The notes under the pieces are model-generated. The model saw only the letters and a list, made by a program, of their open reading frames with translations. It had not been told where the DNA came from and ran no database searches. From Candidatus Levybacteria bacterium RIFCSPHIGHO2_02_FULL_40_18 (GTDB taxonomy: Bacteria > Patescibacteriota > Microgenomatia > Levybacterales > GWA1-39-11), in the NCBI GenBank assembly GCA_001782235.1, contig MFOC01000007.1, forward strand, positions 251,909-315,908: a stretch of 64,000 bases of DNA. The letters are read 5' to 3'. Shown in pieces: positions 1-60,606 of this stretch (positions are counted from its first letter, which is position 1; every line of letters begins with the position of its first letter). The position numbers were made by a program, and so were the translations under genes.

Positions 1-532
1 TATCTTTCGCCTTTATGGCGGACAACTTGACTGCTCTCTCCAAAGCAGGGCCGAAGTTCTCGCCTAGCATGTCGTTCCAGCCAGGAGTGGAGTTGTTTGC
101 GTCTCCGGACACGTCCTTGCTGCTTGCGCAGCGGTATTTGAAGCAGACGTTATAGAAGTTGCGCATGGCAGTTTCGGACTGGTTGAGGGTCCAATAAGCC
201 GTCACCGCCAACTCAATCTGCACTCCCGATTTGGTGGTCGCCGTAATCAGCTGAGTGCGGTCGCCTACAACGTTTCCGTTGGCATCCGTCACTGTCCCGT
301 CGCTGACGATGTAGTTCCGCGAGTTGCACGGAATAAAGGAGACGTCCTCGTTGTCGCCCTTGTCGACCTTCTGACCCTGGTACTCAATCCGGTGCAGTTT
401 GGAGTCGCGGCCTTTCGCGCCGTCTCCGACTACGAAGGCACAACTTGCGGTTGTAGTCGACGTATCAGTGCAGGCGAGGAGAAGCAGAGCAACTGCAAGT
501 ACAGCCACTACCACTATCGCTGACCTAAGCAT
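1..532 (-). CDS. putative lipoprotein, N-terminal portion; gene runs off window start
   Basis: Minus-strand frame open from the ATG (530-532) to position 1. GGAGGA sits 5 nt upstream of the ATG. N-terminus MLRSAIVVVAVLAVALLLLAC is a signal peptide plus lipobox Cys. About 60% GC. Not in the ORF track because there is no in-window stop. Confidence 0.5.
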   Translation of the reverse strand, partial: MLRSAIVVVAVLAVALLLLACTDTSTTTASCAFVVGDGAKGRDSKLHRIEYQGQKVDKGDNEDVSFIPCNSRNYIVSDGTVTDANGNVVGDRTQLITATTKSGVQIELAVTAYWTLNQSETAMRNFYNVCFKYRCASSKDVSGDANNSTPGWNDMLGENFGPALERAVKLSAIKAKD

Positions 533-558
533 TGTATTCCTCCTTCGACTATTCGTGC

Positions 559-1860
559 TTAGTTCTGCACGGCAGGAACAGACCTGGCGATTTCCAGAGG
601 CGCCTCCTGAGCGGCTTCTCGGGCAAGTTCGAGCACGTGCTCGATCTGCGCCTGGTTTACCCTCTGGGTAGCCGCATCGATTACCTCCTTGCCCGTGATC
701 ATCGCCTGCTCGAGCTCGAGCCTCTTCTGCTGACCGAGTTCGATAGCCTGAACGATTCCGTCGGCCTGCGCCGCCAGAGACTCGCTCCATGCCACTACGG
801 TGCGGGGGTCCAGAGCCGGCGTCGCCAGCGCGTTTGCTATCATCGGCACGGTGGCCTTTGCAGCATTTGCGAACAAGGTCAGCACCTGGTTGTAGGTATC
901 CTCGACGGCCGCGTTGAACTGTAGCGCCTGTTCGGCGTCACCCAACGTGAGCCAGATAAGGATAGTTCCTTTCATGGTCGGGATCGTGATGTCGACGGTC
1001 TGGTCAATCCGGGCTGACAGACCCACTTGGACTACTCGCATGTTGCGAGTCTGCGGGGCCATAGCCCATGCAACCCAGAGCCGTCCCTTGAACGCGATGA
1101 TCCTGTTCTCAAGAAGCGTGACGAGCTCCGAAATCCGAGCCTGCTCTTCGCCGCCGCGGTCTCCCATGTTGGAATCGCCGACAACGATGCTGTCAGCCTG
1201 CTCGGCAGCCAAGTCGCGGATGATCTCCATGACGCCGATCTTGTAGATCAGCTTGTTGATCTCCTGCTCATTGAGCTTATAGAACTCGTCGTAGTAGGCT
1301 ACATTCCTGAGCAGCTGCTCCTGTTTGCCATCGAGTTTTTCGATGACCCAGTCGCACTGCTCCTCGAGTCCGCGGATATCGTCGAGGAACTCCTCGAGGA
1401 ATGTCCTGCCGAGACGGAAGATGCCCAGGAAGCGGCCCTTAGCCTTCTTGTACTTCTCGAGTGCTTTGGGGTCGCTGGGGTCGTACCTGCGGCCAATACC
1501 GCGCATACGCCGGGAAAGATCCCTCATGGCGTCACTCAGCTCCGGAATGTCGATAGGGTGGCGCTCGCTAAGCATCCGGTCGTTTAACCGGTTGATTGAC
1601 TCGAGCGCATCGTTTCCGAAGACCGCCAACACTTGAGTGTTGGACAACATCTTCGGTAGGACATCCGTAGCTTCTGCCTGTGCCCTGACGAGAGTGTCGC
1701 CTTCCAGTAATTGCCGGCAAACGAGCAGTTCTCGCTTCTGAGGGCTAACAGACAGAGCAGAAAGCTCTGTTACTTGCGAAGTCGGTCGGGGCTCCGCCGG
1801 AATGGTGGCCGCAAACTGCGGGGACACTACGATGGTGGGTTGGGTCGGCTGTTGAGTCAT
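559..1860 (-). CDS. TelA-like toxic anion resistance family protein
   Basis: 433-aa ORF in the high-GC block. Predicted to be mostly helical, and its length and pattern are typical of TelA/KlaA (YaaN-like) proteins. Assigned from recalled family resemblance, not from an alignment. Confidence 0.5.
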   Translation of the reverse strand: MTQQPTQPTIVVSPQFAATIPAEPRPTSQVTELSALSVSPQKRELLVCRQLLEGDTLVRAQAEATDVLPKMLSNTQVLAVFGNDALESINRLNDRMLSERHPIDIPELSDAMRDLSRRMRGIGRRYDPSDPKALEKYKKAKGRFLGIFRLGRTFLEEFLDDIRGLEEQCDWVIEKLDGKQEQLLRNVAYYDEFYKLNEQEINKLIYKIGVMEIIRDLAAEQADSIVVGDSNMGDRGGEEQARISELVTLLENRIIAFKGRLWVAWAMAPQTRNMRVVQVGLSARIDQTVDITIPTMKGTILIWLTLGDAEQALQFNAAVEDTYNQVLTLFANAAKATVPMIANALATPALDPRTVVAWSESLAAQADGIVQAIELGQQKRLELEQAMITGKEVIDAATQRVNQAQIEHVLELAREAAQEAPLEIARSVPAVQN

Positions 1861-1883
1861 GTCGGTACTCCTTTAGCTTGTGG

Positions 1884-2879
1884 TCAGCGATATCGCTGGG
1901 CCTGCAGAATGTTGGTGTTAACCCTGAAGTCAAAAAGATCTTCGGCACTGCCGCGCCTGATCGACTCCAGGACGTACTCGGAGAAGTCGGTGATTGACTC
2001 CTTTCCCCTCTGTAGCTCTTCGCCCCAATTGGTGTAGTAGCGCGGATTGTCCTGGACATCGGCATACTTAGCCAGGACTTGAGCGACCTCATTCAAGCGG
2101 TCTCTAAAGAAAAGGGAATCCCTCTTCTTATCCTTACTACTTGAGGAGAAGTATCTCTCGATATCCACACACAGCTGGTAGAGCGCATCTTTGAGCTCCG
2201 AGTCTTTGATCTGCCAGCGTTCTCTTACGATTTTCGCGAGCAGTTCCTTGACTTGGTCGGGTGCTCTGAAGCGCGTTTTTTCCGTGCTAGACTCTGTTTC
2301 CTGGCTGGCGACAACCGCAAGAACTGCGATGACGACGAGCACAATGACGACAGCAATGCCTAGCCATACGAACCACGACAGACCTCCTTTCTCAGGTGAA
2401 TCGAGCGGCGGAGGGTTTAATTGGGGATTCTCCCTCTGCCAGATGTGCATGTTCTGCACGAACGTGCCCAGTGTCGTCACCGGATCGTTAGAGACGCTTC
2501 TTGCGCGCCTCATTTGATCGGCAGCAACTCCTGCAGGTAGAGTTGGCGCATATCCTACCACATTGTTGCCTACCGCAAGTCCGATGATTCGCCGGTTTCC
2601 CAGCTCTTCGGACAGGCGACTTGCAATTGTGGTGATATCCGCTCCAAGACTTGATTCTGCCGCAGCCGGTAGCATAACCAAGACGATGTTGTCGTCTTTG
2701 TTGAGCCTTTCCTGCAATTTGCCGGCTGTGTCTTTGTCAGTCCCTTCGGTGCCGGGAGCCACGTAGACGGGCGCATTCTTTAAAGCCTGCGCTGCGTCTG
2801 TGATGTAGTCGGCAAAGACTACGTGGGGCGCTAAAAGAGCCAGAACTGCTAAAGCAACGGCTTTAGCTATGTGCTTCAT
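1884..2879 (-). CDS. membrane protein adjacent to TelA: signal peptide, exported domain, one TM helix, cytoplasmic C-terminal domain
   Basis: 331-aa ORF with N-terminal signal-like segment (AVALAVLALLAPHVVFA) and a central hydrophobic helix (WFVWLGIAVVIVLVVIAVLAVVA). Tightly linked to the TelA-like gene on the same strand. A possible XpaC/TPM-like relationship is not verified. Confidence 0.4.
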   Translation of the reverse strand: MKHIAKAVALAVLALLAPHVVFADYITDAAQALKNAPVYVAPGTEGTDKDTAGKLQERLNKDDNIVLVMLPAAAESSLGADITTIASRLSEELGNRRIIGLAVGNNVVGYAPTLPAGVAADQMRRARSVSNDPVTTLGTFVQNMHIWQRENPQLNPPPLDSPEKGGLSWFVWLGIAVVIVLVVIAVLAVVASQETESSTEKTRFRAPDQVKELLAKIVRERWQIKDSELKDALYQLCVDIERYFSSSSKDKKRDSLFFRDRLNEVAQVLAKYADVQDNPRYYTNWGEELQRGKESITDFSEYVLESIRRGSAEDLFDFRVNTNILQAQRYR

Positions 2880-3340
2880 CCCGTCCTCTCCTTTCTCTTC
2901 GGCTTTTGCCGAAAGCTAGGGTCTTTTGTTCGAAGAAATCTTCGATCAAGGACCTAAGTTCATACTTAATGCGATTCTGCTTCTCCTTAATTTGCTATCC
3001 ATTTTTAATCTTTCTCCTTGTTTTTTATTTGCCTAAGGCAATCCGATCCCGATTTCTGTCAGGACGAGAGTGCCGTAGGCAAGATTCGCTCTAGCTTTTG
3101 AGCGAAGTTCAAGAAGATTCCACAGTCAAATTGTCAAAGAGCAACTTTAAGCGATTTAAACTTAAGCAATTTTAGTTTTGGCGCTTAAAGACAAATATAT
3201 TGTATTTAAAATCAGCAAGCTTTTCAGTTCTTTTGAGAACTATTGAACGTGCTGACAGTAACAGTGGATTATATCCAAAACAGGATAAAGAATCAAATAT
3301 TATAGGGTAATACTTTTACTTTCCGGGGGATTTCTGTAAG

Positions 3341-6167: not shown

Positions 6168-7151
6168 ATGGGTAGTTCATTAATTACAAACCAAAAAGAG
6201 AAAATTCGGGAGCTTATTGATTCTTCCGAAAGTATCGGTATTATAGTTTCGGAAAATCAAAATATTGATACGGTGGCCGCAGCGCTCGGTCTGTATCTTT
6301 CTCTCTCATCAAACGGCAAGAATGTTCAAATTGTTTCAAAAAAAGAACCGACAGTCGAGGTTTCAAGCCTGGTTGGGGTTGACAAAATTTCAAAGACTTT
6401 TGCCGGTAACATAAAGATCTTAACAATCTCGGTTCCATATCGGGAGGGCGAGATAGAAAAAGTCTCATACAATATTGAAGACACAAGACTTAACGTTAAT
6501 TTGTTCGCCGAAACTTCAGGAATCACATTCAATGAAAGCGAAATTCAATATATAAGAAAAGGCTCGGCTCCTTCTCTTGTGATAACTTTAGGAGTAATAG
6601 ATGAATCTGAGCTTCTGGGACTTTTGGATCTTAAAAGTGTTAAAAGTATTCATATTGATCGAAATCCCTTGAATGCAATGCAGGGAGACGTTGTAATTAT
6701 TGATCCTTCCTTTTCTTCATTATCTGAAATTGTAACAGAGCTTATAACTGAGCTTAATCTTGGCCATGATATTGATTCGTTCCAGAATTTAATGGATGGT
6801 ATAACCTACGCGACCCGCAATTTCACTCTTCCCGCGACAAGTCCGTTTGCATTTGAAATGGCAGGATTTTTACTTCAGAACGGAGCAAGGAGAAAAGAAA
6901 AAGGCGAAAGACGTGAGGAGCGCGAAAGAAACTTCCCCCAAGAATCGCATTTCCTTCAGACAAGAGGTGCCGGCAGATCTGATTTTAGACAAAATCGTCC
7001 GCAGGCAGGAAGACCTCAAACTGCCCAAGATCCATTCGCGAGCACTAAAAATATTGAGCAAGTTGAGAGTGTTGAAGGTACTGGAACCGGCGAAATTCCG
7101 GAAGATTGGTTTCTTCCTAAAGTCTTCAAAGGCTCCCGAAAAGGCAACTAA
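6168..7151 (+). CDS. DHH-domain (NrnA-like) protein with degenerate catalytic motifs and an Arg/Glu-rich C-terminal tail
   Basis: 327 aa. Layout resembles the DHH domain of NrnA, but the DHH and PDxD positions are replaced (IDR, SENQNIDT). No DHHA1 domain. Low-complexity RRKEKGERREERER tail. Sits in the operon position where Actinobacteria carry a DHH phosphoesterase. Confidence 0.35.
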   Translation: MGSSLITNQKEKIRELIDSSESIGIIVSENQNIDTVAAALGLYLSLSSNGKNVQIVSKKEPTVEVSSLVGVDKISKTFAGNIKILTISVPYREGEIEKVSYNIEDTRLNVNLFAETSGITFNESEIQYIRKGSAPSLVITLGVIDESELLGLLDLKSVKSIHIDRNPLNAMQGDVVIIDPSFSSLSEIVTELITELNLGHDIDSFQNLMDGITYATRNFTLPATSPFAFEMAGFLLQNGARRKEKGERREERERNFPQESHFLQTRGAGRSDFRQNRPQAGRPQTAQDPFASTKNIEQVESVEGTGTGEIPEDWFLPKVFKGSRKGN

Positions 7152-7157
7152 CCCAAG

Positions 7158-7301
7158 ATAATAGTTATAAGAAAATAGAAATTAGTAATAGAAAATGCCT
7201 GCCTGCCGGCAGGCAGGGAGAATAGAAAATAGTTAAACAAAAAAAACAAATTTCCAATTTCTAATTTCCATTACTATTTTCCAATATCTAACAACCAATT
7301 T
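7158..7301. repeat. MITE-like inverted-repeat element, copy A (carries the nested 20-nt palindrome)
   Basis: Shares the arms GAAAATAG..GAAATTAGTAATGGAAA and CCAATTTCCAATATCTAATTTCCATTAC with copies at 18014, 41558 and 44491. Confidence 0.6.
7198..7217. repeat. 20-nt perfect GC-rich palindrome CCTGCCTGCCGGCAGGCAGG (copy 1)
   Basis: Identical to 10195-10214. Here it sits inside the MITE-like element. Confidence 0.8.
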
Positions 7302-7782: not shown

Positions 7783-10194
7783 ATGAAAAGATCGTCAAAA
7801 ACGCTTCAAATTAACGGAACAACCTTAACACTTGAAACCGGCGTACTTGCACAACAAGCAACGGCTTCGGTTTTGGGCAGGATGGGAGATACAATGGTGG
7901 TTGCAACCGTTGTAATGGGTCGTGAAGATTCAACTTTAGGATATTTTCCTCTCAGTGTTGAGTATGTAGAAAGGCTTTATGCTGGAGGAAGAATAAAGGG
8001 GAGCCGTTGGGTAAAGCGTGAAGGAAGGCCGTCTGATGAAGCAATTCTAACGGCACGAATGATTGACCGTTCAATTCGCCCGCTTTTCCCAAAAGAACTT
8101 AAAAAGGATGTTCAGGTAGTTATAACCGTATTGTCTGTGGATCAGGAGAATAAACCCGATATATTGGCAGTAAACACTACCGTGGCAGCGCTGGCGATAT
8201 CAAAAATTCCGTGGGGGGGACCGATCGGAGCAACAAGGATAGGATTAGTATCAAAAGGTGAACAGCAGGAATTCATTGTGAATCCGACAGCATCAGAGGA
8301 GGAGCTATTGGAGCTCGATCTTATTGTTTCGTCCCGGCGCGACCGAACAGTTATGCTTGAGGCAGGAGCAAAACAAATAAGAGAGGATTTGGTTGAGCAG
8401 GGTATTAAAATGGCAGGAGAGTGGAACAATAAAATTGTTGACTTAATTGAACAATGGGCTGAAGAGGTTGGGGAGAAAAAGATAGAACTTCCAAAAGATG
8501 AGAAAGCGGAGGAAGCAAGACTTCTAATTGAGAAGTCTTACAAAGACCGTATGCAAAAAATTATTTCGGAGGGTATAACTCGCGAAGTTGCCGGGGTTTT
8601 TGATGAAATTATTGACGAAATTGAGGAGCTTGAAAAAGAAACTATTGAGCCCCGCGAAAAAATTGCCGAAGCCGTAGATTACGTATTCAAAAAGGCTGTT
8701 CGAGACATGATTCTTTCCGAAGGAAAAAGACCGGACGGAAGGAAACTTGATGAGATTCGCCCGGTAACAGCCGCAGTTGGCGTTTTGCCAAGAACACACG
8801 GTTCGGCAATTTTTTCAAGGGGCGAAACTCAATCTTTAACAGTTGCGACACTGGGTCCCTCTTCTTTGGAGCAGCTTATTGAAGGGCCGGAAGGGGAAGA
8901 AACTAAGCGATATATGCACCATTACTCCTTTCCCCCATACTCGGTTGGCGAGGTGGGAAGGCTTGGATCGCCTAACAGACGTGAGGTTGGGCACGGAGCG
9001 CTTGCCGAACGCGCGCTTGAACCTGTTATACCGCCTGTCTCGACATTTCCATATGCAATCCGTGTGGTATCTGAAATTATGTCTTCAAATGGTTCAACAT
9101 CTCAGGCTGCAGTTTGCGGCTCCACATTATCCCTGATGGACGCAGGTGTTCCTTTAGTTGCGCCGGTTGCAGGTATCGCGGTAGGACTAATGACCTCTGG
9201 TGAGAAATATGCTTTACTCACTGACATTATTGGTCTTGAGGATTTTTCAGGAGACATGGACTTTAAAGTTGCGGGGACAGAGAAAGGAATCACGGCAATA
9301 CAGCTTGATGTAAAAATTGAAGGATTAACAGAACAAATGATCTCAGAAACTTTAGTGGTGGCGCGTAAGGCAAGACTTGAAGTTCTTGATAAGATGCTTT
9401 CCGTTATTCCTGAGTCAAGAAAAGATGTTTCAAAATTTGCTCCAAAGATTAAGACCATTCAAATTAATCCTGAAAAAATAGGGGATGTCATAGGATCAGG
9501 GGGCAAGACTATTCGAAACATCTCGACTCAAACTGGCGCAACTGTAGATGTTGAGGAGGATGGGACCGTGTCTATTTCCTCATTGGATGAGGAGGCGGTT
9601 GAGAAGGCTGCTCATTGGGTGGACCTAATCACGCGGGAACTTCAAAAAGGAGAGGTTTTTGAAGGAACGGTTAAAAGAATTGTTAATTTTGGGGCATTTG
9701 TTGAAATAGTTCCGGGCAAAGAAGGGTTGGTACATGTGTCAGAAATGGCACCTGAGTACGTTAAAGATCCGCATGATGTTGTTGAGATAGGTCAAAAAGT
9801 TAAGGTAAACGTAAAAGAAATTGATGACGTAGGGAGGATTAATCTTTCAATGTTGTTCGGCGAAAGACCGGCAAGACCTGAAGGCAGTCCTGAGGGGTCG
9901 GACCGAGCCTTTGGCGAGGGAGACCGGCTGCGAGAGGAGCGAGACAGCGGTGGGAGCCGAACATTTCGACCTCGTGAAGAAAGATTCGAACGAGGCGAAA
10001 GACCGCCAAGAAGGAGCTTCGGAGGTCCGAGATCCTTCGATAGGACTCCCTTCGAAACTCAGGGCAGGCAGGGCAAGCGAGAAGGCGCAAGACCATTCAG
10101 ACCAGGCGGAAGACCATTTAGACGCGGTTCAAGACCTAGCGGTCCCGCGCCGTTTGATTCCCTCCGTCCAGGAGGGACCCGTACCCGAAGATAA
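7783..10194 (+). CDS. pnp: polyribonucleotide nucleotidyltransferase (PNPase) with Arg/Gly-rich C-terminal extension
   Basis: 803 aa with two RNase PH-like domains, KH and S1. A C-terminal ~110-aa RG/RP-rich tail is encoded by a GC-rich segment (9860-10190). Confidence 0.9.
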   Translation: MKRSSKTLQINGTTLTLETGVLAQQATASVLGRMGDTMVVATVVMGREDSTLGYFPLSVEYVERLYAGGRIKGSRWVKREGRPSDEAILTARMIDRSIRPLFPKELKKDVQVVITVLSVDQENKPDILAVNTTVAALAISKIPWGGPIGATRIGLVSKGEQQEFIVNPTASEEELLELDLIVSSRRDRTVMLEAGAKQIREDLVEQGIKMAGEWNNKIVDLIEQWAEEVGEKKIELPKDEKAEEARLLIEKSYKDRMQKIISEGITREVAGVFDEIIDEIEELEKETIEPREKIAEAVDYVFKKAVRDMILSEGKRPDGRKLDEIRPVTAAVGVLPRTHGSAIFSRGETQSLTVATLGPSSLEQLIEGPEGEETKRYMHHYSFPPYSVGEVGRLGSPNRREVGHGALAERALEPVIPPVSTFPYAIRVVSEIMSSNGSTSQAAVCGSTLSLMDAGVPLVAPVAGIAVGLMTSGEKYALLTDIIGLEDFSGDMDFKVAGTEKGITAIQLDVKIEGLTEQMISETLVVARKARLEVLDKMLSVIPESRKDVSKFAPKIKTIQINPEKIGDVIGSGGKTIRNISTQTGATVDVEEDGTVSISSLDEEAVEKAAHWVDLITRELQKGEVFEGTVKRIVNFGAFVEIVPGKEGLVHVSEMAPEYVKDPHDVVEIGQKVKVNVKEIDDVGRINLSMLFGERPARPEGSPEGSDRAFGEGDRLREERDSGGSRTFRPREERFERGERPPRRSFGGPRSFDRTPFETQGRQGKREGARPFRPGGRPFRRGSRPSGPAPFDSLRPGGTRTRR

Positions 10195-10214
10195 CCTGCC
10201 TGCCGGCAGGCAGG
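10195..10214. repeat. 20-nt perfect palindrome CCTGCCTGCCGGCAGGCAGG (copy 2), immediately after the pnp stop
   Basis: Identical to 7198-7217. Possible terminator-like hairpin, but no U-tract follows. Confidence 0.8.
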
Positions 10215-21670: not shown

Positions 21671-23920
21671 ATGCAGTTGCCTTTTATAAAGACTATAGAT
21701 AAGCAGAAAAATTTTTTTCTTTCACTCCTAATTAAACCGGACAAGGTAGGTGCAATTCTTTTTGAAGAAATCAATTCAAAGCTATTCATTTTATCCACAA
21801 ATGAAATCGATGCAGGAGAAGATACAAGTAAACTCTCGGAGGAAGAATTATTGTCGGCAGCAGATAAAGTTATTAGTTTTGTAGAAGGAAAATTACCCGA
21901 GGGCGCAGAAGTTGAAAAAACCATATTTTCCGTTCCGTACTATTGGGTTAGTGAAGCCTCCGGCCCAGAGGGCCTCCGGCCCGGCGGGGGAAAGATACTC
22001 CAAGAATACCTGGATAAACTTAAAAAAATATGTAAAGATTTGGGTCTTGTCCCTATCGGCTACATAGTTTCAATAGAGGCAATTGTAGCTTTCCTTCAGA
22101 AAACAGAAGGCGCTCCGGTCTCGGGAATATTTATTGAAGTAACTCAGAATAAAGTATTGCTGTATGTTGTCAGAGCCGGAAAGGTAATTGAGGAAAAGCA
22201 AAGTGACATAGAAGAAAGCATTATTAAGACCTCCGAAAAGTTATTGCAAGAGGTGCAATCAGTTGATGTTTTGCCTTCAAAAATAATTCTTCTTGACTAT
22301 AAAGACGGCTCGTCGGTCCAGCAGGAATTTTTATCACATCAATGGGCACGCGAAATTCCTTTTCTTCATCTGCCCCAAGTAATGATGCTTGAGCGCGGAT
22401 TTGAGAATGAAGCGATTATAAATGGTGTCGCCACACAAATGGAACTTGAAGTTTTGCATGATGTTACGGCGGGGAAAGCGGAAGCCTTGAAGGAAGATTT
22501 AGAATATGTAGAAGCCAAGGATTTTGGATTTATTAAAGAAGGTGAAGATAAAGAGGACAAAGGAGAGAAGAGACATGAGGGAGAATCGGAGGATTTGAAA
22601 AAAGTATCAAAAAAATCGGGGAAAAAAGAGGAGGAAGAGCCAAATATTTCCTACTTTAAAGAAGGGGAAGACCTTCCGGCAGAAATCCCGAAAGATGAAC
22701 AAGATTTACCATCGAAAATTAAAATACCCGTTTCTCTTGATTTGATATTTTCTCCGATTCGAAATTTTAGAATTCCTAAAGGATTGCCTGGACCGCTGAA
22801 ATATAAGTTAATAATTGTGCTTTTTGGAGTTTTACTTTCAGCCTTTTTTGCTTCATTTATCTATTATAACCTTGTTTTAAGAGCAGAGATTAAAATTATG
22901 TCAGACAAAAAAAGCATTGATAAGAATCAAAACGTACTTTTCTCTCGCGATTCGACAGAAGGTACAAATATAAACATCGAAGTTGCGCAAGAAACAATAA
23001 CCGGCTCGGAACAGAAGAATTCAACAGGGAAAAAAGAAACAGGGGACCGCGCTAAAGGAGAAATAACGCTTTATAATAAAACAGAGCAGAAAAAGACTTT
23101 CTCTAAAGAGACAATTATTATCGGCCCTAATGATTTAGAATTTGAGCTTACCGAAGAAGTTAACATTGCCTCAACAAGTCCTTTCTCAACCTCTCTGTCA
23201 AGCGCAAAGGGCAAAGTTATAGCAAGTACCTTTGGGAAAGAATATAACCTCCCGTCAAACACAAACTTCACAATTAAAGGGTTTTCCTCAGCTCAGTTTA
23301 TTGGTAAAAACACTGATAGTATCTCTGGCGGAACAAAAAAAGAAACAACGGTTGTTTCTTCAGAGGATCTTGAGGAATTACTTTCGGAAGTAAATGAGAA
23401 ACTTGAGCGCGAAGCAATTCAAAAAGCGCAAAGTTCGCTTTCTTCCGAGCAAGAAATTCTTTCAAAGGCATTATCGAGCGAGGTTTTAGAAAGAAAGTAC
23501 ACAAAAAAAGAGGGTGAAGAGGCAGGTTCCGTTGGGATCTCTGCAAAAATTAAATACTCTATTGGCAGGTATAAGAAGAGCGACATAGAGAACGTTGTTG
23601 AATCTTTATCACGGCCGGACATACCAGGAACGTATGCTTTAGTCGGGAGCGATTCAAAAGTAGAGATAACAAGCATAAAAATAGGTAAAGACAATAGTGC
23701 CCAGGCTCTTCTTAAGGTAAATGCAGTTTATACGCCGCAGATTGAAGGCGAAAAACTGGCAGAGTCGTTAAAAGGAAAAACTCAAGATGCGGCAGAGAAG
23801 CAAATAAAGAGCATAGCAGGCGTAACAGAAGTTGTTATAACATTTAAAAATAATCTTCCATTTATGCCGCTTGTCTTGCCTAACCAGGGGAAAAATATTT
23901 TAATAGAAGAAGAGTATTGA
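21671..23920 (+). CDS. large bitopic protein: cytoplasmic N-terminal domain (possibly actin-fold, PilM/FtsA-like), one TM helix, S/T/K-rich extracytoplasmic C-terminal domain
   Basis: 749 aa with a TM helix at ~IIVLFGVLLSAFFASFIYYNLVL. Carries the in-frame GC-rich insert encoding SGPEGLRPGGG. The fold assignment is weak. Confidence 0.5.
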   Translation: MQLPFIKTIDKQKNFFLSLLIKPDKVGAILFEEINSKLFILSTNEIDAGEDTSKLSEEELLSAADKVISFVEGKLPEGAEVEKTIFSVPYYWVSEASGPEGLRPGGGKILQEYLDKLKKICKDLGLVPIGYIVSIEAIVAFLQKTEGAPVSGIFIEVTQNKVLLYVVRAGKVIEEKQSDIEESIIKTSEKLLQEVQSVDVLPSKIILLDYKDGSSVQQEFLSHQWAREIPFLHLPQVMMLERGFENEAIINGVATQMELEVLHDVTAGKAEALKEDLEYVEAKDFGFIKEGEDKEDKGEKRHEGESEDLKKVSKKSGKKEEEEPNISYFKEGEDLPAEIPKDEQDLPSKIKIPVSLDLIFSPIRNFRIPKGLPGPLKYKLIIVLFGVLLSAFFASFIYYNLVLRAEIKIMSDKKSIDKNQNVLFSRDSTEGTNINIEVAQETITGSEQKNSTGKKETGDRAKGEITLYNKTEQKKTFSKETIIIGPNDLEFELTEEVNIASTSPFSTSLSSAKGKVIASTFGKEYNLPSNTNFTIKGFSSAQFIGKNTDSISGGTKKETTVVSSEDLEELLSEVNEKLEREAIQKAQSSLSSEQEILSKALSSEVLERKYTKKEGEEAGSVGISAKIKYSIGRYKKSDIENVVESLSRPDIPGTYALVGSDSKVEITSIKIGKDNSAQALLKVNAVYTPQIEGEKLAESLKGKTQDAAEKQIKSIAGVTEVVITFKNNLPFMPLVLPNQGKNILIEEEY
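21953..21992 (+). repeat. GC-rich in-frame mini-insert (family a)
   Basis: GCCTCCGGCCCAGAGGGCCTCCGGCCCGGCGGGGG. About 88% identical to 60438-60472 in infA. Confidence 0.6.
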
Positions 23921-27540: not shown

Positions 27541-30500
27541 ATGGCGGACAAAAAATCTGGGGTTGACCGACAATATTGGGGAAAGATTGAAAAAGCGCTG
27601 CCCAAGCTCGAGCTTTTATCGATTCAAAAGAACTCTTACGATTGGTTTATTCGTGAAGGAATTCGTGAAGTAATTGACGAAATTTCGCCAATTGAAGACT
27701 TTACCGGGAAAAATTGGGAACTTTCACTTGGCGATTACAAACTCTCAGAACCTAAAATCACAGAAGCCCAAGCCATATCAAAAGGCTTAACATACTTTTC
27801 TCCTCTGACGGTTGAAGCAACGTTAATCAATAAAAAAACAGGAAAGAAAGTTTCTCAGAATGTTTTCTTGGGGGAAATCCCAAAAATGACAGATCGCGGA
27901 ACATTTATCATTAATGGAATAGATCGCGTTATAGTAAGTCAAATTGTTCGCTCTCCGGGAGTATTCTTCACAGCAACTGAAGATCCGATAACGGGGAAAA
28001 CTCTATATACGGGAGAAATGAGGCCGGTTCATGGATCTTGGCTTGAATTTTCAACAACAAGAACAGACATGATAGTTGTCCGAATTGATAGGCGAAAAAA
28101 GTTTTTAGCTTCAGTTTTCTTGAAAGCATTGGGTATCCCAAGCAATGAAGAAATTTATGAAAGATTTAAAGGGCTCCGACCCGGAGAGTCTCCCGACTCA
28201 GAAAGAGAAGGCTCCGCCCCGGAGGGAGTAGAGATGTCGGAAACTTACATAAAAAACACTATCGAAAAAGACGATACTCGAGGCGAAGCGGACGCTTTAA
28301 TTGAGATATTTAAGAAGATGAATCCGGGAGAGCCTGTTGTTATAGATACAATTAGACAAAACTTCCGCGATTCCTTTTTTGACAGAAGAAGATATGACCT
28401 ATCACGTGTCGGAAGGTACAAGGTAAACAAAAAACTTTCCCAAATTCCAAGTTTTGTCCCACAAGAAAGCTATACATTAACGGTTAATGATGTTTTGGGG
28501 ATTACATCCTATCTTATTGGTTTGTCCCAAGGCAATGGGAAAATTGACGATATAGATCATTTGGCAAACAGGCGCATCCGGTCGGTTGGAGAACTTGTCC
28601 AAACAACAGCTTTTCGCGTGGGGGCGCTTAGGCTCGAGCGAATTATTAAAGAAAAAATGAGCCTTGCCTCAACCGAAGAGCAATATTTACCCTCCCACTT
28701 TATTAATGCCCATCCGATAATTGCGGCAATTAATGAATTTTTCAGAACTTCACAGCTCTCGGCAATTCTTGACCAGACAAATCCATTATCCGAGATCGAC
28801 AACATAAGACGTTTAACAGTTATGGGTACGGGAGGAATATCAAGGGAACGCGCCTCTTTCTCAATTCGTGATATAAACTCTTCCCAGTACTCAAGAATTT
28901 GCCCGGTCAGATCCCCCGAGGGCCCCAATATTGGTTTGGTTACATATCTTGCCCTTTATGCAAGAGTAAACGATTACGGGTTTCTTGAAGCGCCGTATAA
29001 AAAGGTTATAAAAGAAAAAAAGGGCAGAAAAGAGATTTCAAAAATTACTTCCGAAATAGTTTATATGGACGCAGGAGAAGAGGCAGATCATTATGTAACG
29101 CATGCCGATATTAGAATTGACCCTCGCGGCTATATTTTAGATGATCTTGTTCCGGCAAGATATAATGGAGAGTATCTTGAGGTAGAAAAAGAGAAAATCG
29201 AATTTATTGACGTTATCCCAAGGCAGGTTGTGGGAACCTCTGCCGCACTTATTCCATTTATAGATCATGACGAAGCAAATCGCGCACTAATGGGTACTCA
29301 TATGCAGTGCCAGGCAGTGCCTCTTGTCCGAAGCGAGAGCCCGATCATTGGAACAGGCATGGAGGCAACCGTATCGCAAGCTATGTCAAGAGTGATAAGG
29401 GCTCCATTTGATGGACAAGTAGCTTATATTGATGCAAATCGCGTTATATTAAAAGGGAGAGGTCGTGGTCAGGAAGAAACTTTTACGATAAATAAATTTA
29501 AGAGAACTTCAAACAATACTTTATTCAATCAAAAACCTGTTGTAGTTTCCGGTCAGCGCGTTAAGAAAGGAGATATTTTAATAGACGGACCGGCTTCTAA
29601 AAATGGGGAATTGGCTTTGGGAAAAAACTTGGTTATTGCCTATGCGTCTTTTGACGGGCTTGGGTACGAGGATGCCATTGTAATCTCAGACAGACTTGTT
29701 CGTGATGATTCTCTTACCTCCGTTCATATAGAAAAATACGAAGCAACGGTTGTTGACACGAAACTTGGGCCTGAGGAGACTACGCGGGATATCCCAAATG
29801 TTGCGGAGGAGGACCTTGCAAACCTTGATGAGGACGGCATTGTTGTAGTTGGGTCAGAAGTCAAGCCGGGAGACATCTTGGTTGGAAAAATTGCCCCAAA
29901 GGGCGAGACGGAATTAACTGCGGAGGAAAGACTACTCCGTGCAATCTTTGGGGAAAAAGCAAGGGAAGTCCGCGACACTTCTCTTCGAATGCCGCACGGC
30001 GAGCATGGAATCGTTACAAATGTTCAAATTCTTGATCGCGCCCGCGGAGATGAACTTGAGCCCGGAACAATACGAAAAATCCAAATTGAAGTTGCACAAA
30101 TCAGACATGTTGTAGTAGGAGATAAACTTGCCGGTCGTCATGGGAATAAGGGGGTTATTTCAAAAATAGTTCCTGAGGCCGATATGCCATATCTTGAAGA
30201 TGGGGTGCCGGTTGATATTATTATTTCCCCAATATCAGTTTTGGGTCGTATGAATCTTGGTCAGCTTCTTGAGGCACATCTTGGCCTTGCGGCAAAAAAA
30301 CTAAATATGGAAATTGCGCTTCCGGTTTTTGAGAAGATGAGCGAAGAACAATACCTAGATCTTTTGAAAAAAGCAAAGCTCCCGGTTAATGGAAAGATGA
30401 AGCTTTATGATGCAAGGACGGGGGAGCCATATGAGAATGATGTAGTCGTTGGAATTGGATATATTATGAAACTTATCCACATGGTTGAGGATAAAGCTCA

Positions 30501-30951
30501 CGCACGGTCAACCGGCCCGTACTCTCTTGTCACTCAACAGCCGCTCGGAGGGAAAGCTCAGATGGGAGGACAGCGTCTTGGAGAAATGGAAGTATGGGCA
30601 CTTGAAGCACACCGGGCAGCATATTCACTTCAGGAAATGTTGACAATAAAAAGCGATGATGTTTCGGGACGAGCTCGCGCTTTTGAAGCAATTATTAAGT
30701 CTGTTGATATTCCAACTCCAAAAGTTCCGGAATCGTTTAAAGTTTTAATTAGGGAATTACAGTCACTGTCTCTTAATATAATACCTGAACAGGCAGTGAT
30801 AGTAGAAGAAAAAGAAGATGAGATGACAGAACGTCAGGAAGAAATAAGAGAGGAGGCAAAAGAGCTTCAAAAGGAGCTCTCAGGCATTGAGGTAACCTCG
30901 GAATCTGAGGCCGTTCGATCATTAGGAGAAGAAGAGATTCCGCAGGGGTAA
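27541..30951 (+). CDS. rpoB: DNA-directed RNA polymerase subunit beta
   Basis: 1136 aa with conserved beta-subunit motifs. Contains the GC-rich in-frame insert at 28171-28232. Confidence 0.95.
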   Translation: MADKKSGVDRQYWGKIEKALPKLELLSIQKNSYDWFIREGIREVIDEISPIEDFTGKNWELSLGDYKLSEPKITEAQAISKGLTYFSPLTVEATLINKKTGKKVSQNVFLGEIPKMTDRGTFIINGIDRVIVSQIVRSPGVFFTATEDPITGKTLYTGEMRPVHGSWLEFSTTRTDMIVVRIDRRKKFLASVFLKALGIPSNEEIYERFKGLRPGESPDSEREGSAPEGVEMSETYIKNTIEKDDTRGEADALIEIFKKMNPGEPVVIDTIRQNFRDSFFDRRRYDLSRVGRYKVNKKLSQIPSFVPQESYTLTVNDVLGITSYLIGLSQGNGKIDDIDHLANRRIRSVGELVQTTAFRVGALRLERIIKEKMSLASTEEQYLPSHFINAHPIIAAINEFFRTSQLSAILDQTNPLSEIDNIRRLTVMGTGGISRERASFSIRDINSSQYSRICPVRSPEGPNIGLVTYLALYARVNDYGFLEAPYKKVIKEKKGRKEISKITSEIVYMDAGEEADHYVTHADIRIDPRGYILDDLVPARYNGEYLEVEKEKIEFIDVIPRQVVGTSAALIPFIDHDEANRALMGTHMQCQAVPLVRSESPIIGTGMEATVSQAMSRVIRAPFDGQVAYIDANRVILKGRGRGQEETFTINKFKRTSNNTLFNQKPVVVSGQRVKKGDILIDGPASKNGELALGKNLVIAYASFDGLGYEDAIVISDRLVRDDSLTSVHIEKYEATVVDTKLGPEETTRDIPNVAEEDLANLDEDGIVVVGSEVKPGDILVGKIAPKGETELTAEERLLRAIFGEKAREVRDTSLRMPHGEHGIVTNVQILDRARGDELEPGTIRKIQIEVAQIRHVVVGDKLAGRHGNKGVISKIVPEADMPYLEDGVPVDIIISPISVLGRMNLGQLLEAHLGLAAKKLNMEIALPVFEKMSEEQYLDLLKKAKLPVNGKMKLYDARTGEPYENDVVVGIGYIMKLIHMVEDKAHARSTGPYSLVTQQPLGGKAQMGGQRLGEMEVWALEAHRAAYSLQEMLTIKSDDVSGRARAFEAIIKSVDIPTPKVPESFKVLIRELQSLSLNIIPEQAVIVEEKEDEMTERQEEIREEAKELQKELSGIEVTSESEAVRSLGEEEIPQG
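28171..28232 (+). repeat. GC-rich in-frame insert in rpoB with two CCGG-CCGGAG-G half-sites
   Basis: GGCTCCGACCCGGAGAG...GGCTCCGCCCCGGAGGGAG encoding LRPGESPDSEREGSAPEG. Resembles the infA and hypothetical-gene inserts. Confidence 0.45.
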
Positions 30952-30996: not shown

Positions 30997-33900
30997 ATGG
31001 ACGATAAAAATCTTAGGAGGGACAAAAAATTTGATGCAATAAATATTGCAGACTTTAAAGGTCTTAGAATCTTAGTTGCAGAACCTGAGAATATAAGACA
31101 GTATTCGTATGGCGAGGTCACGAAACCTGAGACGATTAACTATAGAACATATAGACCTGAGAAGGACGGACTTTTTGATGAAAGAATCTTTGGTCCCACT
31201 CGAGACTTTGAATGTTATTGTGGAAAATACAAAAGAATTAGATACAAAGGAATAATTTGTGATAGATGTGGCGTTGAGGTTACATACTCGAGGGTAAGGC
31301 GTGAGCGAATGGGGCATATATCCCTTGCCTCACCGGTTGTCCACATCTGGTTTTCAAAAGGAAGTCCGTCAAAGCTTTCTACCCTCCTTGATATCCCTCA
31401 AAAAGATTTAGAATCGGTAATATATTTTGCCTCTTATTTAGTCATTAAAATGGACGAAGACAAGAGGAAGGAAGCACAAAAAGCTATATCTAAAATTAAA
31501 GAAGAACGAATAAAAAGCTTAAAAGATCAGGCGGCTTCGGAATTAAAAACCCTAGAGAAAGAAGAGCGCGAGCGCGTGAAGGATGTAAAAAAGAGTCTTT
31601 CGAAGGAGCAGAAAGAGCTTGTTCTTGAGGAAACAGATATCGCATACAAGCAGAAAAAGAATCTTCTTGAAAAAAGAGTCGAAACCGAGGTGGCAAGAAC
31701 AGAAGAGATATTTGTGAGGGTAAGTGAAATTATCAAGGGGCTTAAGATTTGGAATGTTCTCTCAGAAGAAGAGTATGTGAGACTTATTGAATATGATATT
31801 CCCCTATTCTTTGAAGTAGAAACAGGGGCCTCGGCTGTGCTCCATGCGATTGAATCAATAGACTTTTCAAAACTTATCGGAGAGTTACGGGAAGAGGTAG
31901 CAAAATCCACAAGCCAAAAGCAATTGAAACTCATGAAGAGACAGCATCTAATTGAGTCTATGAATGCGGCAGGTTTTAAGCCAACCGCTTTAGTTCTTGA
32001 AGTTCTTCCGGTTCTACCGCCTGATCTTCGCCCCATGGTCCAGCTAAACGGCGGCAGATTTGCAACATCGGACCTTAATGATTTGTATCGCCGCGTTATC
32101 AACAGGAATAATAGGCTTAAGCATCTCATATCTTTGGGCGCGCCCGAAATAATACTTCGAAATGAAAAAAGAATGTTGCAGGAGTCTGTTGATTACCTTA
32201 TAGATACCTCCATCAGAACGTCTCAGACCCAGAAACAATTTAAGTCTCTTTCAGATATTCTTCGTGGCAAACAGGGAAGATTTAGAAAGAATCTTCTTGG
32301 AAAGAGAGTTGATTATTCGGGACGTTCTGTCATCATTGTTGGTCCCGAGCTCACACTTAATCAATGTGGTCTTCCAAAAGAAATGGCGCTTGAATTGTTT
32401 AAGCCGTTTGTAATTCGTGAAGTTATCTCGCGCGGTTTAACAACGCCCAATGTAAAAGCAGCAAAAAGATTTATAGAAAGAAGAAGTCCTGAGATTTTCG
32501 ATATTTTAGAGGAAATTACAAAGAATCATCCCGTGCTTTTAAACCGTGCCCCAACTCTTCATAAACTTGGCATGCAGGCATTTTATCCGGTTCTTGTTGA
32601 AGGATCTGCCATAAAGATTCATCCCTGTGTCTGCGCCGGGTACAATGCCGATTTTGACGGAGACCAGATGGCAATTCACGTACCGCTCTCATCTCGCGCA
32701 CAAGAGGAAGCAATTAACCTCATGATGCCGGCTCACAACCTTTTAAAACCTGCGGACGGCGCACCTATCACTCTTCCGAATAAGGAAATGGCGCTTGGAG
32801 CATTCTATCTGACAAGCGTTGACGAGAGACTTAGGCCGCAAGATGGCAATCTTCATATTTTTTCTGATGAAAAGGAAGCTTATCTTGCTTTTTCGCTTAA
32901 GAAAATTTCACTTCGCGGGCCCATAAGAGTAAAGATAAATGGCGAGGTTATTGAAACTACAATAGGAAGAATAATTTTTAATGAGAAATTGCCGCAAGAA
33001 ATGAAATTCATAAATTATGAAGTAAAAGCCTCAACGATTAAAAATCTCGTAACGCAAGCAATGGTGAATCTTACATCTTCTGAAGTCGCAAATCTTATTG
33101 ATAATCTTAAAGAGATCGGTTTTTATGCTGCAACAATTTCTGGAATATCTATTTCTACTTTTGATTTAAAGAGGCTTCTTAACAAAGAAGAATTAATTGC
33201 CGAGGCGGAAGAAAAAATTAAAGAGATAGATGAGGAGTACCAAAACGGTCTTATTACAAATCTTGAGCAGCGAAGGCTTTCTAATAACGTTTGGCTTGAC
33301 ATTACAGATAAAATGGCAAATCTTACCTGGGAGTTGTTTGATAAGAACGATATTGTTAGAATCATTGCGGAATCGGGTGGTGCGAGAGCAGGTAAAGATC
33401 AGATCAAGCAGCTTGCAGCAATGCGTGGATTGATTTATGATCCCTTGGGACGAATCGTTGAGCTTCCGATAAAATCTAATTTCCGAGAAGGACTTTCGAT
33501 CTTTGAATATGTTAATTCTGCCCGCGGTTCAAGAAAGGGACTGACAGATTCGGCACTGAAAACCGCAGACGCCGGATATTTAACCCGCCGCTTGGTAGAC
33601 GTTGCGCATGATGTAATAATTCGGAAAGATAATTGTCAGGTTGATGAAGGGATTGTTGTTCAGAGACGAGATGACGAGTCATACATGACAAGTATGCTGC
33701 TCGGCCGCGTGGCTTTGCGTGATGTGACAAGCAAAAAAGACAAGAAGACAATAGCCAAAAAAGGTTCTGAGATTGACTATGAGGTACTCCATAAAATAAT
33801 TAAAGACGATAGTATAGGCGAAATATCCGTTCGTTCTCCTCTTTATTGTAAACTGCGTTATGGCGTTTGCGCCACATGCTACGGTTGGGATCTGTCATCT

Positions 33901-48286: not shown

Positions 48287-49240
48287 ATGCAATCTTTAAT
48301 TGGCAAGAAAATTGATCAAACACAAGGGTTTTTAGAGGATGGGACGCGCGTTCCGCTCTCAATTATTTCCGTGGCAGGAAATGTCGTGATACAGGTCAAG
48401 ACAGGCGACCACGAGGGATATAATTCAATTCAACTTGGATTTGGAACTTGGAAGCGCCCAACCAAACCAATGGCAGGACACATTAAAAAAGCGGGGTTAA
48501 AAAAAATGCCTCGCTTTTTTCGTGAAATAAGGGCAGACGAAGCGCCAGCCTCGCCGAGTCTAGGCGGGCCGAATCTTGCACCAGGTTCGGCGATTTTAGT
48601 TTCAGAAGTTTTCGAGCCCGGCGACATAGTTGATGTTACTGGAATTTCAAAGGGCAAAGGTTTTGCAGGAGTTGTTAAGCTTCATGGATTTCATGGAGGT
48701 CCCAAAACTCACGGGCAATCTGACAGGCATAGGGCCCCGGGAGCAATCGGTTCAGGAACAACTCCGGGTAGAGTTTACAAAGGCAAAAGAATGGCAGGGA
48801 GAATGGGAAATGAGCGCGTGACTATCAAGAACCTTGAGGTTTTAGATGTGAAGGATGATACGATTTTCGTTCGAGGCCTAATTCCTGGAGTAAAAGGTTC
48901 GATCGTTACCATTACAAAAGTAGGGAAGAATAAGAAATTTAAGCCACTATGGGGCGGACTGAGCCCTGGCTCCGGCGAGGGCGAAGTAGCCGTGCGAGGA
49001 GAGCGAGACAGCGGTGGAACTGAAGAGTCGGATGTTCAGACGGCAGTAGATAATGTTTCCGAAGCTGAAAAAGCTGTCAAGACACCAGAGGAAGTAGAAA
49101 CAGCGCAAGACACAGTTGCTTCGGTTGCAAATTCGAGTGAAGGAAAACCTGCAGCCACTGACGGCACTGAGGAATCCGCTGAAAACACTGAAAAAAGTTC
49201 GCCAGGAAAGCAAGAGGAAGGAGAAGGTAATGCCAGTTAA
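48287..49240 (+). CDS. rplC: 50S ribosomal protein L3 with ~100-aa acidic C-terminal extension
   Basis: L3 core followed by an E/T/S-rich tail. The tail contains the 43-nt GC-rich module shared with the pnp tail. Confidence 0.85.
   Translation: MQSLIGKKIDQTQGFLEDGTRVPLSIISVAGNVVIQVKTGDHEGYNSIQLGFGTWKRPTKPMAGHIKKAGLKKMPRFFREIRADEAPASPSLGGPNLAPGSAILVSEVFEPGDIVDVTGISKGKGFAGVVKLHGFHGGPKTHGQSDRHRAPGAIGSGTTPGRVYKGKRMAGRMGNERVTIKNLEVLDVKDDTIFVRGLIPGVKGSIVTITKVGKNKKFKPLWGGLSPGSGEGEVAVRGERDSGGTEESDVQTAVDNVSEAEKAVKTPEEVETAQDTVASVANSSEGKPAATDGTEESAENTEKSSPGKQEEGEGNAS
48974..49017 (+). repeat. GC-rich in-frame module (family b) in the rplC tail
   Basis: GGCGAGGG...GCGAGGAGAGCGAGACAGCGGTGG. About 88% identical to pnp 9914-9953. 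Confidence 0.6.
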
Positions 49241-54048: not shown

Positions 54049-54384
54049 ATGATTATGAAAATAAGAAAAGGAGATACAATCAAGGTTCTAATCGGAAAAG
54101 ATAAGGGAAAGACAGGTCAAGTTGAGCGCATCTTTCCTAAAACTCGAGGCGTGCTTATCCTTTCGGTTAATGAGTATAAAAGGCATGTTAAAAGTAGAGC
54201 GAGGAATCCTGCCTCGCGGCAAGGCGGGCAAAAATCGGAAATTATTACAATCACTAAACCTTTGCCTATATCAAATGTTGCTCTAATCTGTCCCAAGTGT
54301 AAAAAGCCGACTCGTATAGGTTTTCAAATAGAAAAAGGGAAAAAAATTCGAATATGCAAAAAATGCAGTAAAGCAATCGACTAA
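54049..54384 (+). CDS. rplX: 50S ribosomal protein L24 with four C-terminal Cys (CPKC..CKKC)
   Basis: KOW motif GKDKGKTG. The C-terminal hairpin carries a CxxC-x17-CxxC pattern. Confidence 0.85.
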
Positions 54385-60354: not shown

Positions 60355-60606
60355 ATGGTGCATGCGGGTGCAATTGAGTTCTCGGGAGTTGTAAAAGAGG
60401 TATTGCCGAACACATTATTTAGGGTCGAGATCGAGGGAGCCACCGGCCCGGAGGGCCTCGGGTCCGGAGGGGAAAAAGTAGTTTTGTGTCATCTGTCGGG
60501 AAAAATGAGAATACATTTTATAAAAATCCTGCCGGGCGACAAAGTAAGAGTTGAAATGACCCCTTACGATCCGGACCGAGGAAGGATTACCTACCGAGAG
60601 AAATAA
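60355..60606 (+). CDS. infA: translation initiation factor IF-1 with ~10-aa loop insertion
   Basis: OB-fold IF-1 ([11 protein letters not shown]...SGKMR...ILPGDKV). A GC-rich in-frame insert encodes [11 protein letters not shown] in the loop between the flanking beta-strands. Confidence 0.85.
60438..60472 (+). repeat. GC-rich in-frame mini-insert (family a) in infA
   Basis: GCCACCGGCCCGGAGGGCCTCGGGTCCGGAGGGG. Confidence 0.65.

Follow-up and report, generated by a model that had tools for sequence, protein, structure and literature searches.

Short GC-rich palindromes lying in frame in core genes of a Candidatus Levybacteria genome are probably copies of a very small insertion element

Rickettsia palindromic elements (RPEs) occur between genes and, in frame, inside unrelated and often essential genes, where they are translated as an extra peptide at permissive places, and no enzyme mobilising them has been identified (PMC10969869, PMC1779305). 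A similar behaviour is predicted for the subject of this study, a GC-rich palindromic module of 33 nucleotides (nt), called module A, in a stretch of 64,000 nt (the window; contig MFOC01000007.1) from a genome of Candidatus Levybacteria, which belongs to the Candidate Phyla Radiation (CPR, Patescibacteria). GC islands interrupt infA, rpoB and a gene encoding 749 amino acids (aa) in this window, and we consider it likely that they are copies of a very small, non-autonomous insertion element acting at the DNA level. RPEs differ from the module in being about 100-150 bp long, restricted to Rickettsia and endowed with a family-specific conserved peptide, whereas module A measures 33 nt (18 nt in its short form), occurs in CPR and deltaproteobacterial hosts and has no peptide identity, being read in six frames; this is a comparison of descriptions, not of sequences.

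A second parallel is offered by the GC clusters of yeast mitochondria, for instance GC42, which are GC-rich palindromic hairpins dispersed in an AT-rich and compact genome. They are 30-50 nt long, have AG-type purine flanks and no established transposition mechanism, and share with module A presence/absence polymorphism, merging and nesting of palindromes, and purine flanks (PMC4478555). In contrast to the bacterial and often coding module, which shows no duplication at verified empty sites, they are mitochondrial, mostly intergenic and accompanied by a duplicated AG target. Repetitive extragenic palindromes (REPs) of the REP/REPIN-RAYT systems resemble the module as non-autonomous, imperfect palindromes of 20-40 nt that form hairpins and lack target duplications (PMC3116915, PMC3337134, PMC3733652). 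However, REPs are extragenic, lineage-specific and flank a RAYT gene, whereas the module is often intragenic and found across phyla. Neither their GTAG/CGTC end tag (PMC3733652) nor its complement is present in module A or in a second palindrome family, B, and no gene for RAYT, a Y1 transposase, occurs in the sequence inspected. MITEs, or miniature inverted-repeat transposable elements, are likewise non-autonomous, dispersed, bounded by inverted repeats and sometimes fused in frame with host open reading frames (ORFs) (PMC10969869), but typically comprise 50-500 bp, cause target-site duplications and have a cognate insertion sequence with the same ends, none of which was seen for the module. 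Overall, module A works like RPEs, GC clusters and REP/REPINs but lacks some defining features of each. Two simpler assignments were rejected. Intrinsic terminators are not in question, as the A and B copies are not followed by a run of T and most copies lie in genes or 5′ of starts, and DNA uptake sequences (DUS/USS) have approximately 10-12 nt and occur about once per kb, compared with a unit of 33 nt about once per 10 kb. Searches of the accessible literature for the A and B sequences and for palindromic elements in CPR retrieved nothing relevant.

Alignment of metagenomic contexts defines module A as G-CCNCCGG-C-CCNGAGG-G-CCTCNGG-C-CCGGAGG-G (consensus sequence GCCGCCGGCCCAGAGGGCCTCTGGCCCGGAGGG), a unit of 33 nt with sharp boundaries and unrelated flanks. 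A preliminary description of the window had spoken of half-sites; rather than as two half-sites in tandem, the unit is better regarded as a single near-perfect GC-rich palindrome of 31 nt with one G at each end. The consensus folds as a hairpin of −19.9 kcal/mol. A short form of 18 nt, GCCGCCGGCCC·CGGAGGG, equals the 33-nt unit minus its central 15 nt. The consensus is free of stop codons in all six frames, largely because it is GC-rich: 73% of its shuffled versions are stop-free as well, as opposed to 1.6% of 33-mers with the composition of the genome, so that we rejected design as an explanation of this property. Since the unit is 11 codons long and stop-free, insertion into a gene preserves the reading frame, and a copy is predicted to add 11 residues rich in Gly, Pro and Ala.

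In the window, which has a GC content of approximately 41%, the GC islands of all three genes are located where the preliminary description had placed them, and all are in frame.

21671-23920: 749-aa gene, host of a 33-nt A module
21956..21988, plus strand: full-length A module in the 749-aa gene, 33 nt, GCCTCCGGCCCAGAGGGCCTCCGGCCCGGCGGG, read in frame +0 as ASGPEGLRPGG
27541-30951: rpoB, host of a 54-nt composite insert
28175..28228, plus strand: composite insert in rpoB, 54 nt, LRPGESPDSEREGSAPEG, 18 aa
60355-60606: infA, host of a 33-nt A module
60439..60471, plus strand: full-length A module in infA, 33 nt, GCCACCGGCCCGGAGGGCCTCGGGTCCGGAGGG, in frame, with about 4 mismatches to the consensus

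The proposal that palindromic GC-rich modules of one family were inserted in frame is borne out by clean empty sites in orthologues. Translation initiation factor 1 (IF-1) proteins 96-97% identical to that of the window have 72 aa and lack the segment; compared with their empty site, GAA GGA|GAA AAA (loci L081-83), exactly 33 nt have been gained and nothing was duplicated. The same holds for the 749-aa gene, whose filled site exceeds the empty one, GAA|GGG, by exactly 33 nt without any duplication. Its insert is missing in 51 of 52 homologues, the remaining one carrying a different palindrome at the site, and a metagenomic homologue carries the module at the same position. The insert in rpoB is missing in 80 of 80 related rpoB genes, the closest of which is 88% identical. 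An unbiased scan for window-specific insertions of at least 4 aa, covering genes with orthologues in the loci fetched for comparison, returned only these three sites. Moreover, the core CCGGCCCGGAGGG (up to 2 mismatches) has 9 matches in the window against 0.54 expected, a number reached by none of 100 shuffled sequences.

Several observations indicate that the copies are related as DNA. The GC content of the window modules is 0.72-0.87, compared with 0.38-0.47 in their host genes, and their GC content at third codon positions is 0.91 as against 0.36 in the genome. The 33-mers of infA and the 749-aa gene, previously stated to be about 88% identical, are indeed closely similar, but the figure is 28/33 or 85%. 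Six of the eight positions at which they encode the same amino acid share an identical minority codon. These shared GC-ending codons mean that the likeness resides in the nucleotide sequence and not in the peptide; judged from the sequences, codon usage rules out convergence at the peptide level. The in-frame copies of the window have 2-5 mismatches to the consensus and fold no better than shuffled sequence, and are therefore regarded as decayed copies.

The infA insert was expected to occupy a loop of the OB fold. In agreement with this, an AlphaFold model of IF-1 with the insert keeps the OB fold and places the insert in a putatively unstructured loop between two strands (residues 27-40, with pLDDT <50 at residues 30-38). 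The insertion bond in infA presents an allelic series among relatives: it is empty or filled by a perfect 18-nt form, a decayed 18-nt form, the 33-nt unit or a 21-nt B form. Ancient conserved loops, the possibility on which the idea of insertion might have foundered, would have unrelated nucleotide sequences; the inserts of relatives at the same position proved to be the A module, its short form or the second palindrome. Occupancy and relatedness are discordant, as empty L081 and B-bearing L086 are both approximately 77-78% identical to the window in the flanking genes; L084, which bears the short form of A, is approximately 70% identical. Contigs with an identical IF-1, which is also identical to that of 'Levybacteria bacterium RIFCSPHIGHO2_02_FULL', are all about 100% identical to the window. 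In L081 (397-1016), L082, L083 and L087-L089, a small pair of PIN-domain genes or an aspartic-protease-like ORF separates map from infA, where the window has neither.

The composite insert of rpoB is related to module A, as had been proposed, although its description as a bipartite module needs refinement: two 15-nt short-form palindromes (28173-28187 and 28211-28225) lie on either side of a decayed middle. Their hairpins are CTCCGACCCGGAG (28174-28186) and CTCCGCCCCGGAG (28212-28224), and the inner module variant of L198 agrees with the second unit at its ends. Locus L100 carries the module of the 749-aa gene in a form identical to that of the window (33/33) within flanks of only 81-82% identity, but its rpoB site is empty; the inserts of the window thus differ in age. 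Older or more diverged copies may be represented by two further features.

32833..32850, plus strand: rpoC, probable relic of an old module insertion (RPQDGN), a 2-codon relic
7783-10194: pnp, with an A-like hairpin in its tail and a B palindrome after its stop codon
10160..10176, plus strand: hairpin CCCTCCGTCCAGGAGGG resembling A, within the C-terminal tail of pnp, candidate diverged short form

At the rpoC site, L100 has RPPAKNASGPEGE, which is encoded by a module read in frame +1 and mutated at its centre; a decayed 8-aa version is present in L001, and other Levybacteria lack an insert. The hairpin in the pnp tail is, from its sequence, possibly a diverged copy of the short form. A perfect short form, CCTCCGG-CC-CCGGAGG, is located on the same scaffold approximately 3.3 kb to the left of the window (L254, 3240-3257), near the N-terminus of a Peptidase_S8 gene. 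Adding 6.5 kb of scaffold at either end of the window brings the part of the source genome covered to about 77 kb, in which the density is approximately one module per 10 kb.

Beyond this scaffold, a metagenome scan with the tandem core as query, three positions being left open, matched at least 119 contigs with the same 33-mer, so that the anticipated further copies exist both outside the window and in other genomes. From the contigs listed, we drew 32 independent contexts that are not part of a composite repeat. About 13 of these lie inside genes, with gene identities confirmed by Pfam: methionyl-tRNA synthetase (MetRS, frame +2), elongation factor G (EF-G, reverse orientation), prolyl-tRNA synthetase (ProRS), class II ribonucleotide reductase, FolD (reverse orientation), the ribosomal proteins L24 and S8, a hydrolase and a homologue of the 749-aa gene. 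All three frames (0, 1 and 2) and either orientation are represented, which yields six different peptides, and every coding copy seen preserves the frame without a stop codon. The EF-G host is a Candidatus Woesebacteria, and precisely these 11 residues are missing from each of the 11 EF-G proteins closest to it. L24 with the module likewise has 11 extra residues in a clean comparison of empty and filled sites. In another 10 of the 32 contexts the module lies immediately 5′ of a start codon or Shine-Dalgarno sequence, and in each case its GGAGGG end is turned towards the gene. Confinement to this genome or to essential genes does not hold: copies are also intergenic and reach a distant phylum. 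Three copies were found on one IMG/VR contig, and modules nested inside other modules were also seen.

Most of the matches among the at least 119 contigs are copies of a composite repeat of approximately 150 nt with inverted termini (GTAAACCCCGTTAGAAAT...ATTTCTAACGGGGTAAA), which folds into three hairpins, one of them carrying the module at its tip, and is scattered through a deltaproteobacterial lineage.

L143, 3300-3620: composite repeat, also present in L169, L206, L118, L184 and about 50 others

Composite repeats without the module exist (GCTGC-AGA-GCAGC versus GCTGC-A[33 nt]A-GCAGC), and the module is therefore a nested insertion in the repeat. The RpoC protein of a host is 98% identical to one labelled 'Deltaproteobacteria bacterium'. 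In L190, a copy of the composite repeat is read through within a 637-aa ORF resembling nucleotidyl transferases. Searches of Rfam with the window, with eight module-bearing contigs and, in permissive scans, with the composite repeat and one B copy gave no family at the gathering threshold and none that was credible at E<1. The deltaproteobacterial contig L206 harbours a Moco/tungsten riboswitch at 8097-8222 (Rfam RF01055, 74 bits). A related palindrome, CCTCCGGCTCAGAGGAGCCTCTGGCTCGGAGAGG, shares the architecture of four arms but has GGCTC instead of GGCCC, and occurs in L118 (about 2050-2090, and 6246 on the reverse strand) and L185 (10323), where the variant is nested inside an A module.

The same insertion bonds also accept at least one other palindrome family. 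Both infA and the 749-aa gene of CAYIRD01, a sister genome, hold GGC CTG CCT GCC GGC AGG CAG, the core of which, CCTGCCTGCC|GGCAGGCAGG, is a perfect 20-nt palindrome (B) at the very bonds occupied by module A in the window. A and B hence share an insertion bond in two unrelated genes. Other Levybacteria have B in frame in their rplV and rpoB genes; it is also found in 35 stretches of a viral collection with 38-68% GC, and the window contains two intergenic copies.

7198..7217: B palindrome, perfect 20-nt CCTGCCTGCCGGCAGGCAGG, intergenic, 47 nt past the stop codon of the ORF 6168-7151
10195..10214: B palindrome, perfect 20 nt, intergenic, immediately after the pnp stop codon

The hairpin of the former has a z-score of −3.3, and the latter reaches −3.9 jointly with a neighbouring hairpin. 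AATAGAAAAT borders the first copy on either side (window 7160-7230) and is either a 10-bp duplication or a local AT-rich low-complexity repeat. A degenerate B-like copy is present at 1979-1998 of L254. In L240 (495-545), B splits the D-arm of a 5′ fragment resembling a tRNA (CCCCGGTAGCTCAGTTGGTA|B|GAGCGGTTGGCTTTTAA). We rejected this as a case of insertion into a tRNA, since only a 5′ fragment is present and ARAGORN does not call it; the fragment may be the remnant of an integration site. A third GC-rich palindrome family, CGCCTCGCGGCGAAGCG ('SPRGEAG'), occurs in unrelated genes of three Levybacteria genomes.

L001, 12054-12070: third-family copy in rpoC
L077, 7313-7329: third-family copy in alaS
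L046, 3188-3201: third-family copy

A weaker look-alike of this family, GCCTCGCGGCAAGGC, is located at 54211-54225 of the window.

The insertion target of module A is short. A purine precedes the module in 27 of 27 independent contexts and follows it in 24 of 27, and the six bases on each side are 70% purine, without any longer motif emerging. With respect to the gene, one orientation predominates 19:4 (p = 0.003), which fits an asymmetric target on the purine-rich strand or selection on the leader copies. No target-site duplication was detected at the empty sites of infA, rpoB and the 749-aa gene; matches of 2 nt between the flanks were considered as candidate duplications and rejected, being explained by purine richness. 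The decay of copies covers a range from perfect and mismatched copies through the 18-nt form to the 2-codon relic.

Could such palindromes have arisen otherwise? They might be functional signals repeatedly recruited by selection, for instance a site bound by a protein on DNA or a hairpin that stabilises mRNA or tunes initiation, rather than selfish insertions. The ten independent leader copies 5′ of the Shine-Dalgarno sequence or start, with the GGAGGG end always towards the gene, speak for such a role, as do the unchanged module of the 749-aa gene in its diverged flanks and the strong hairpins formed by intergenic B copies and by consensus A. We nevertheless consider it unlikely. The in-frame palindromes of the window have decayed and have lost any folding advantage over shuffles, their positions within genes are not conserved across lineages, empty sites being the rule, and the module is met whatever the frame or orientation, and also within other repeats. 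A recruited signal would still need a mechanism of insertion, so that this explanation overlaps with the insertion element more than it replaces it. An origin on the spot, through replication slippage, template switching or correction of quasi-palindromes at a hot spot and without copying from elsewhere, would account for the infA bond being filled in several lineages by inserts of differing length, for the tandem appearance of the modules and for the resemblance of the purine-rich target to the GGAGG end. However, it cannot yield the same sharply bounded 33-mer in unrelated genes, genomes and phyla, and the flanks provide no sequence to be inserted; we regard it as very improbable.

The remaining alternatives place the explanation in the protein, the RNA or the data. 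Because the inserts are in frame, rich in Gly and Pro and located in loops, the extra residues could be conserved functional loops selected as peptides, but the closest orthologues lack them, the same nucleotides yield six peptides (three frames in both orientations) in addition to the non-coding copies, and the choice of codons is far from the usage of the genome. Hardly any likelihood is left for this proposal. In some yeast mitochondria, GC-rich inserts that form hairpins are bypassed, and B interrupts the tRNA-like 5′ fragment of L240; the modules might by analogy be removed from the RNA as mini-introns or skipped by the ribosome and never appear in a protein. All coding copies seen are in frame and stop-free, however, which would be needless if they were removed, L240 does not contain a complete tRNA, and we know of no bacterial splicing system for such elements, so that removal or bypass is equally improbable in our judgement. 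Short GC-rich palindromes can also confuse assemblers. Artefacts of assembly or sequencing would nonetheless hardly produce identical inserts in assemblies made independently by different projects with different pipelines, with clean in-frame junctions and lineage-specific decay, and we attach a practically negligible probability to them.

An insertion element remains our preferred explanation, and a number of observations have to be set against it. The window contains no transposase-like gene, only housekeeping genes and a TelA-like gene. No protein family travels with the module, as clustering of 1,711 ORFs from the 119 contigs listed returned as recurrent 'families' only translations of the repeat itself. 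Half-modules separated by a gap of the size of a gene were absent from approximately 3 Mb of fetched loci, which held nested modules instead. The unchanged 33/33 module of L100 hints at constraint, gene conversion or recent re-insertion and not at neutral decay, and the single orientation of the leader copies (10/32) could reflect a function and not a bias of the target. Transcription and translation of the inserts are predicted from the reading frame, the copy number of the whole genome is an extrapolation from the approximately 77 kb covered, and the assignment of the composite repeat to Deltaproteobacteria is based on one contig with RpoC.

The comparisons demonstrate that a defined 33-nt palindrome, derived from a template, enters bonds between two purines without leaving a footprint, in many contexts and lineages, and that the copies then decay by substitution and deletion. 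As the agent behind this we envisage an enzyme acting in trans that recognises the hairpin or cruciform. The absence of target duplications, the dependence on a hairpin and the targeting of loops together give the process a likeness to single-strand transposition of the HUH/Y1 kind, and a single-strand DNA transposase of this kind would be the most plausible enzyme; no candidate gene for it was found. Only insertions into permissive surface loops would survive selection. Horizontal spread may account for the occurrence in Levybacteria, Woesebacteria and a deltaproteobacterial lineage, and at least one further palindrome family (B) uses the same insertion bonds. Taken as a whole, this amounts to an undescribed class of 33-nt mobile palindromes that move horizontally between CPR and Deltaproteobacteria, insert without footprint between purines, target hairpin loops and sequences resembling ribosome-binding sites, and routinely write 11-residue loops into core proteins of translation and transcription. 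We put this broad formulation forward tentatively, with somewhat less confidence than would be needed to call it probable.

Two regions of the window stand apart from the modules. The first approximately 2 kb of window 1-2900 have 57% GC in a genome of 41% GC, and the region contains, besides an unannotated ORF of 331 aa, a gene on the minus strand (559-1860) for a TelA-like protein; it is possibly acquired DNA. At 48287-49240, a 317-aa ORF opens a block of ribosomal protein genes and contains two GC-rich islands, at 48542-48571 and 48951-48983, which are candidate inserts of a further family.

Genomes of CPR bacteria are usually regarded as streamlined and poor in repeats. If the broad formulation given above is correct, no smaller mobile DNA than module A would be known to reshape essential proteins, and its existence would imply a machinery for mobilisation specific to hairpins. 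Insertion of 33 nt without footprint, the purine|purine target and the preference for hairpin loops point to a mobilising activity, a question that can be approached experimentally. In practical terms, the modules would introduce spurious indels into the marker-gene alignments used for CPR phylogeny and might seed assembly breaks; conversely, they would be natural, dated presence/absence markers for the tracking of strains. With module A, the phenomenon of in-frame palindromic elements known from Rickettsia and organelles is extended to a unit 3-5 times smaller that apparently crosses phyla. For the CPR bacteria themselves, it would constitute a source of variation in protein length in their most conserved genes, among them those for IF-1, RpoB, RpoC, EF-G, aminoacyl-tRNA synthetases and ribosomal proteins.

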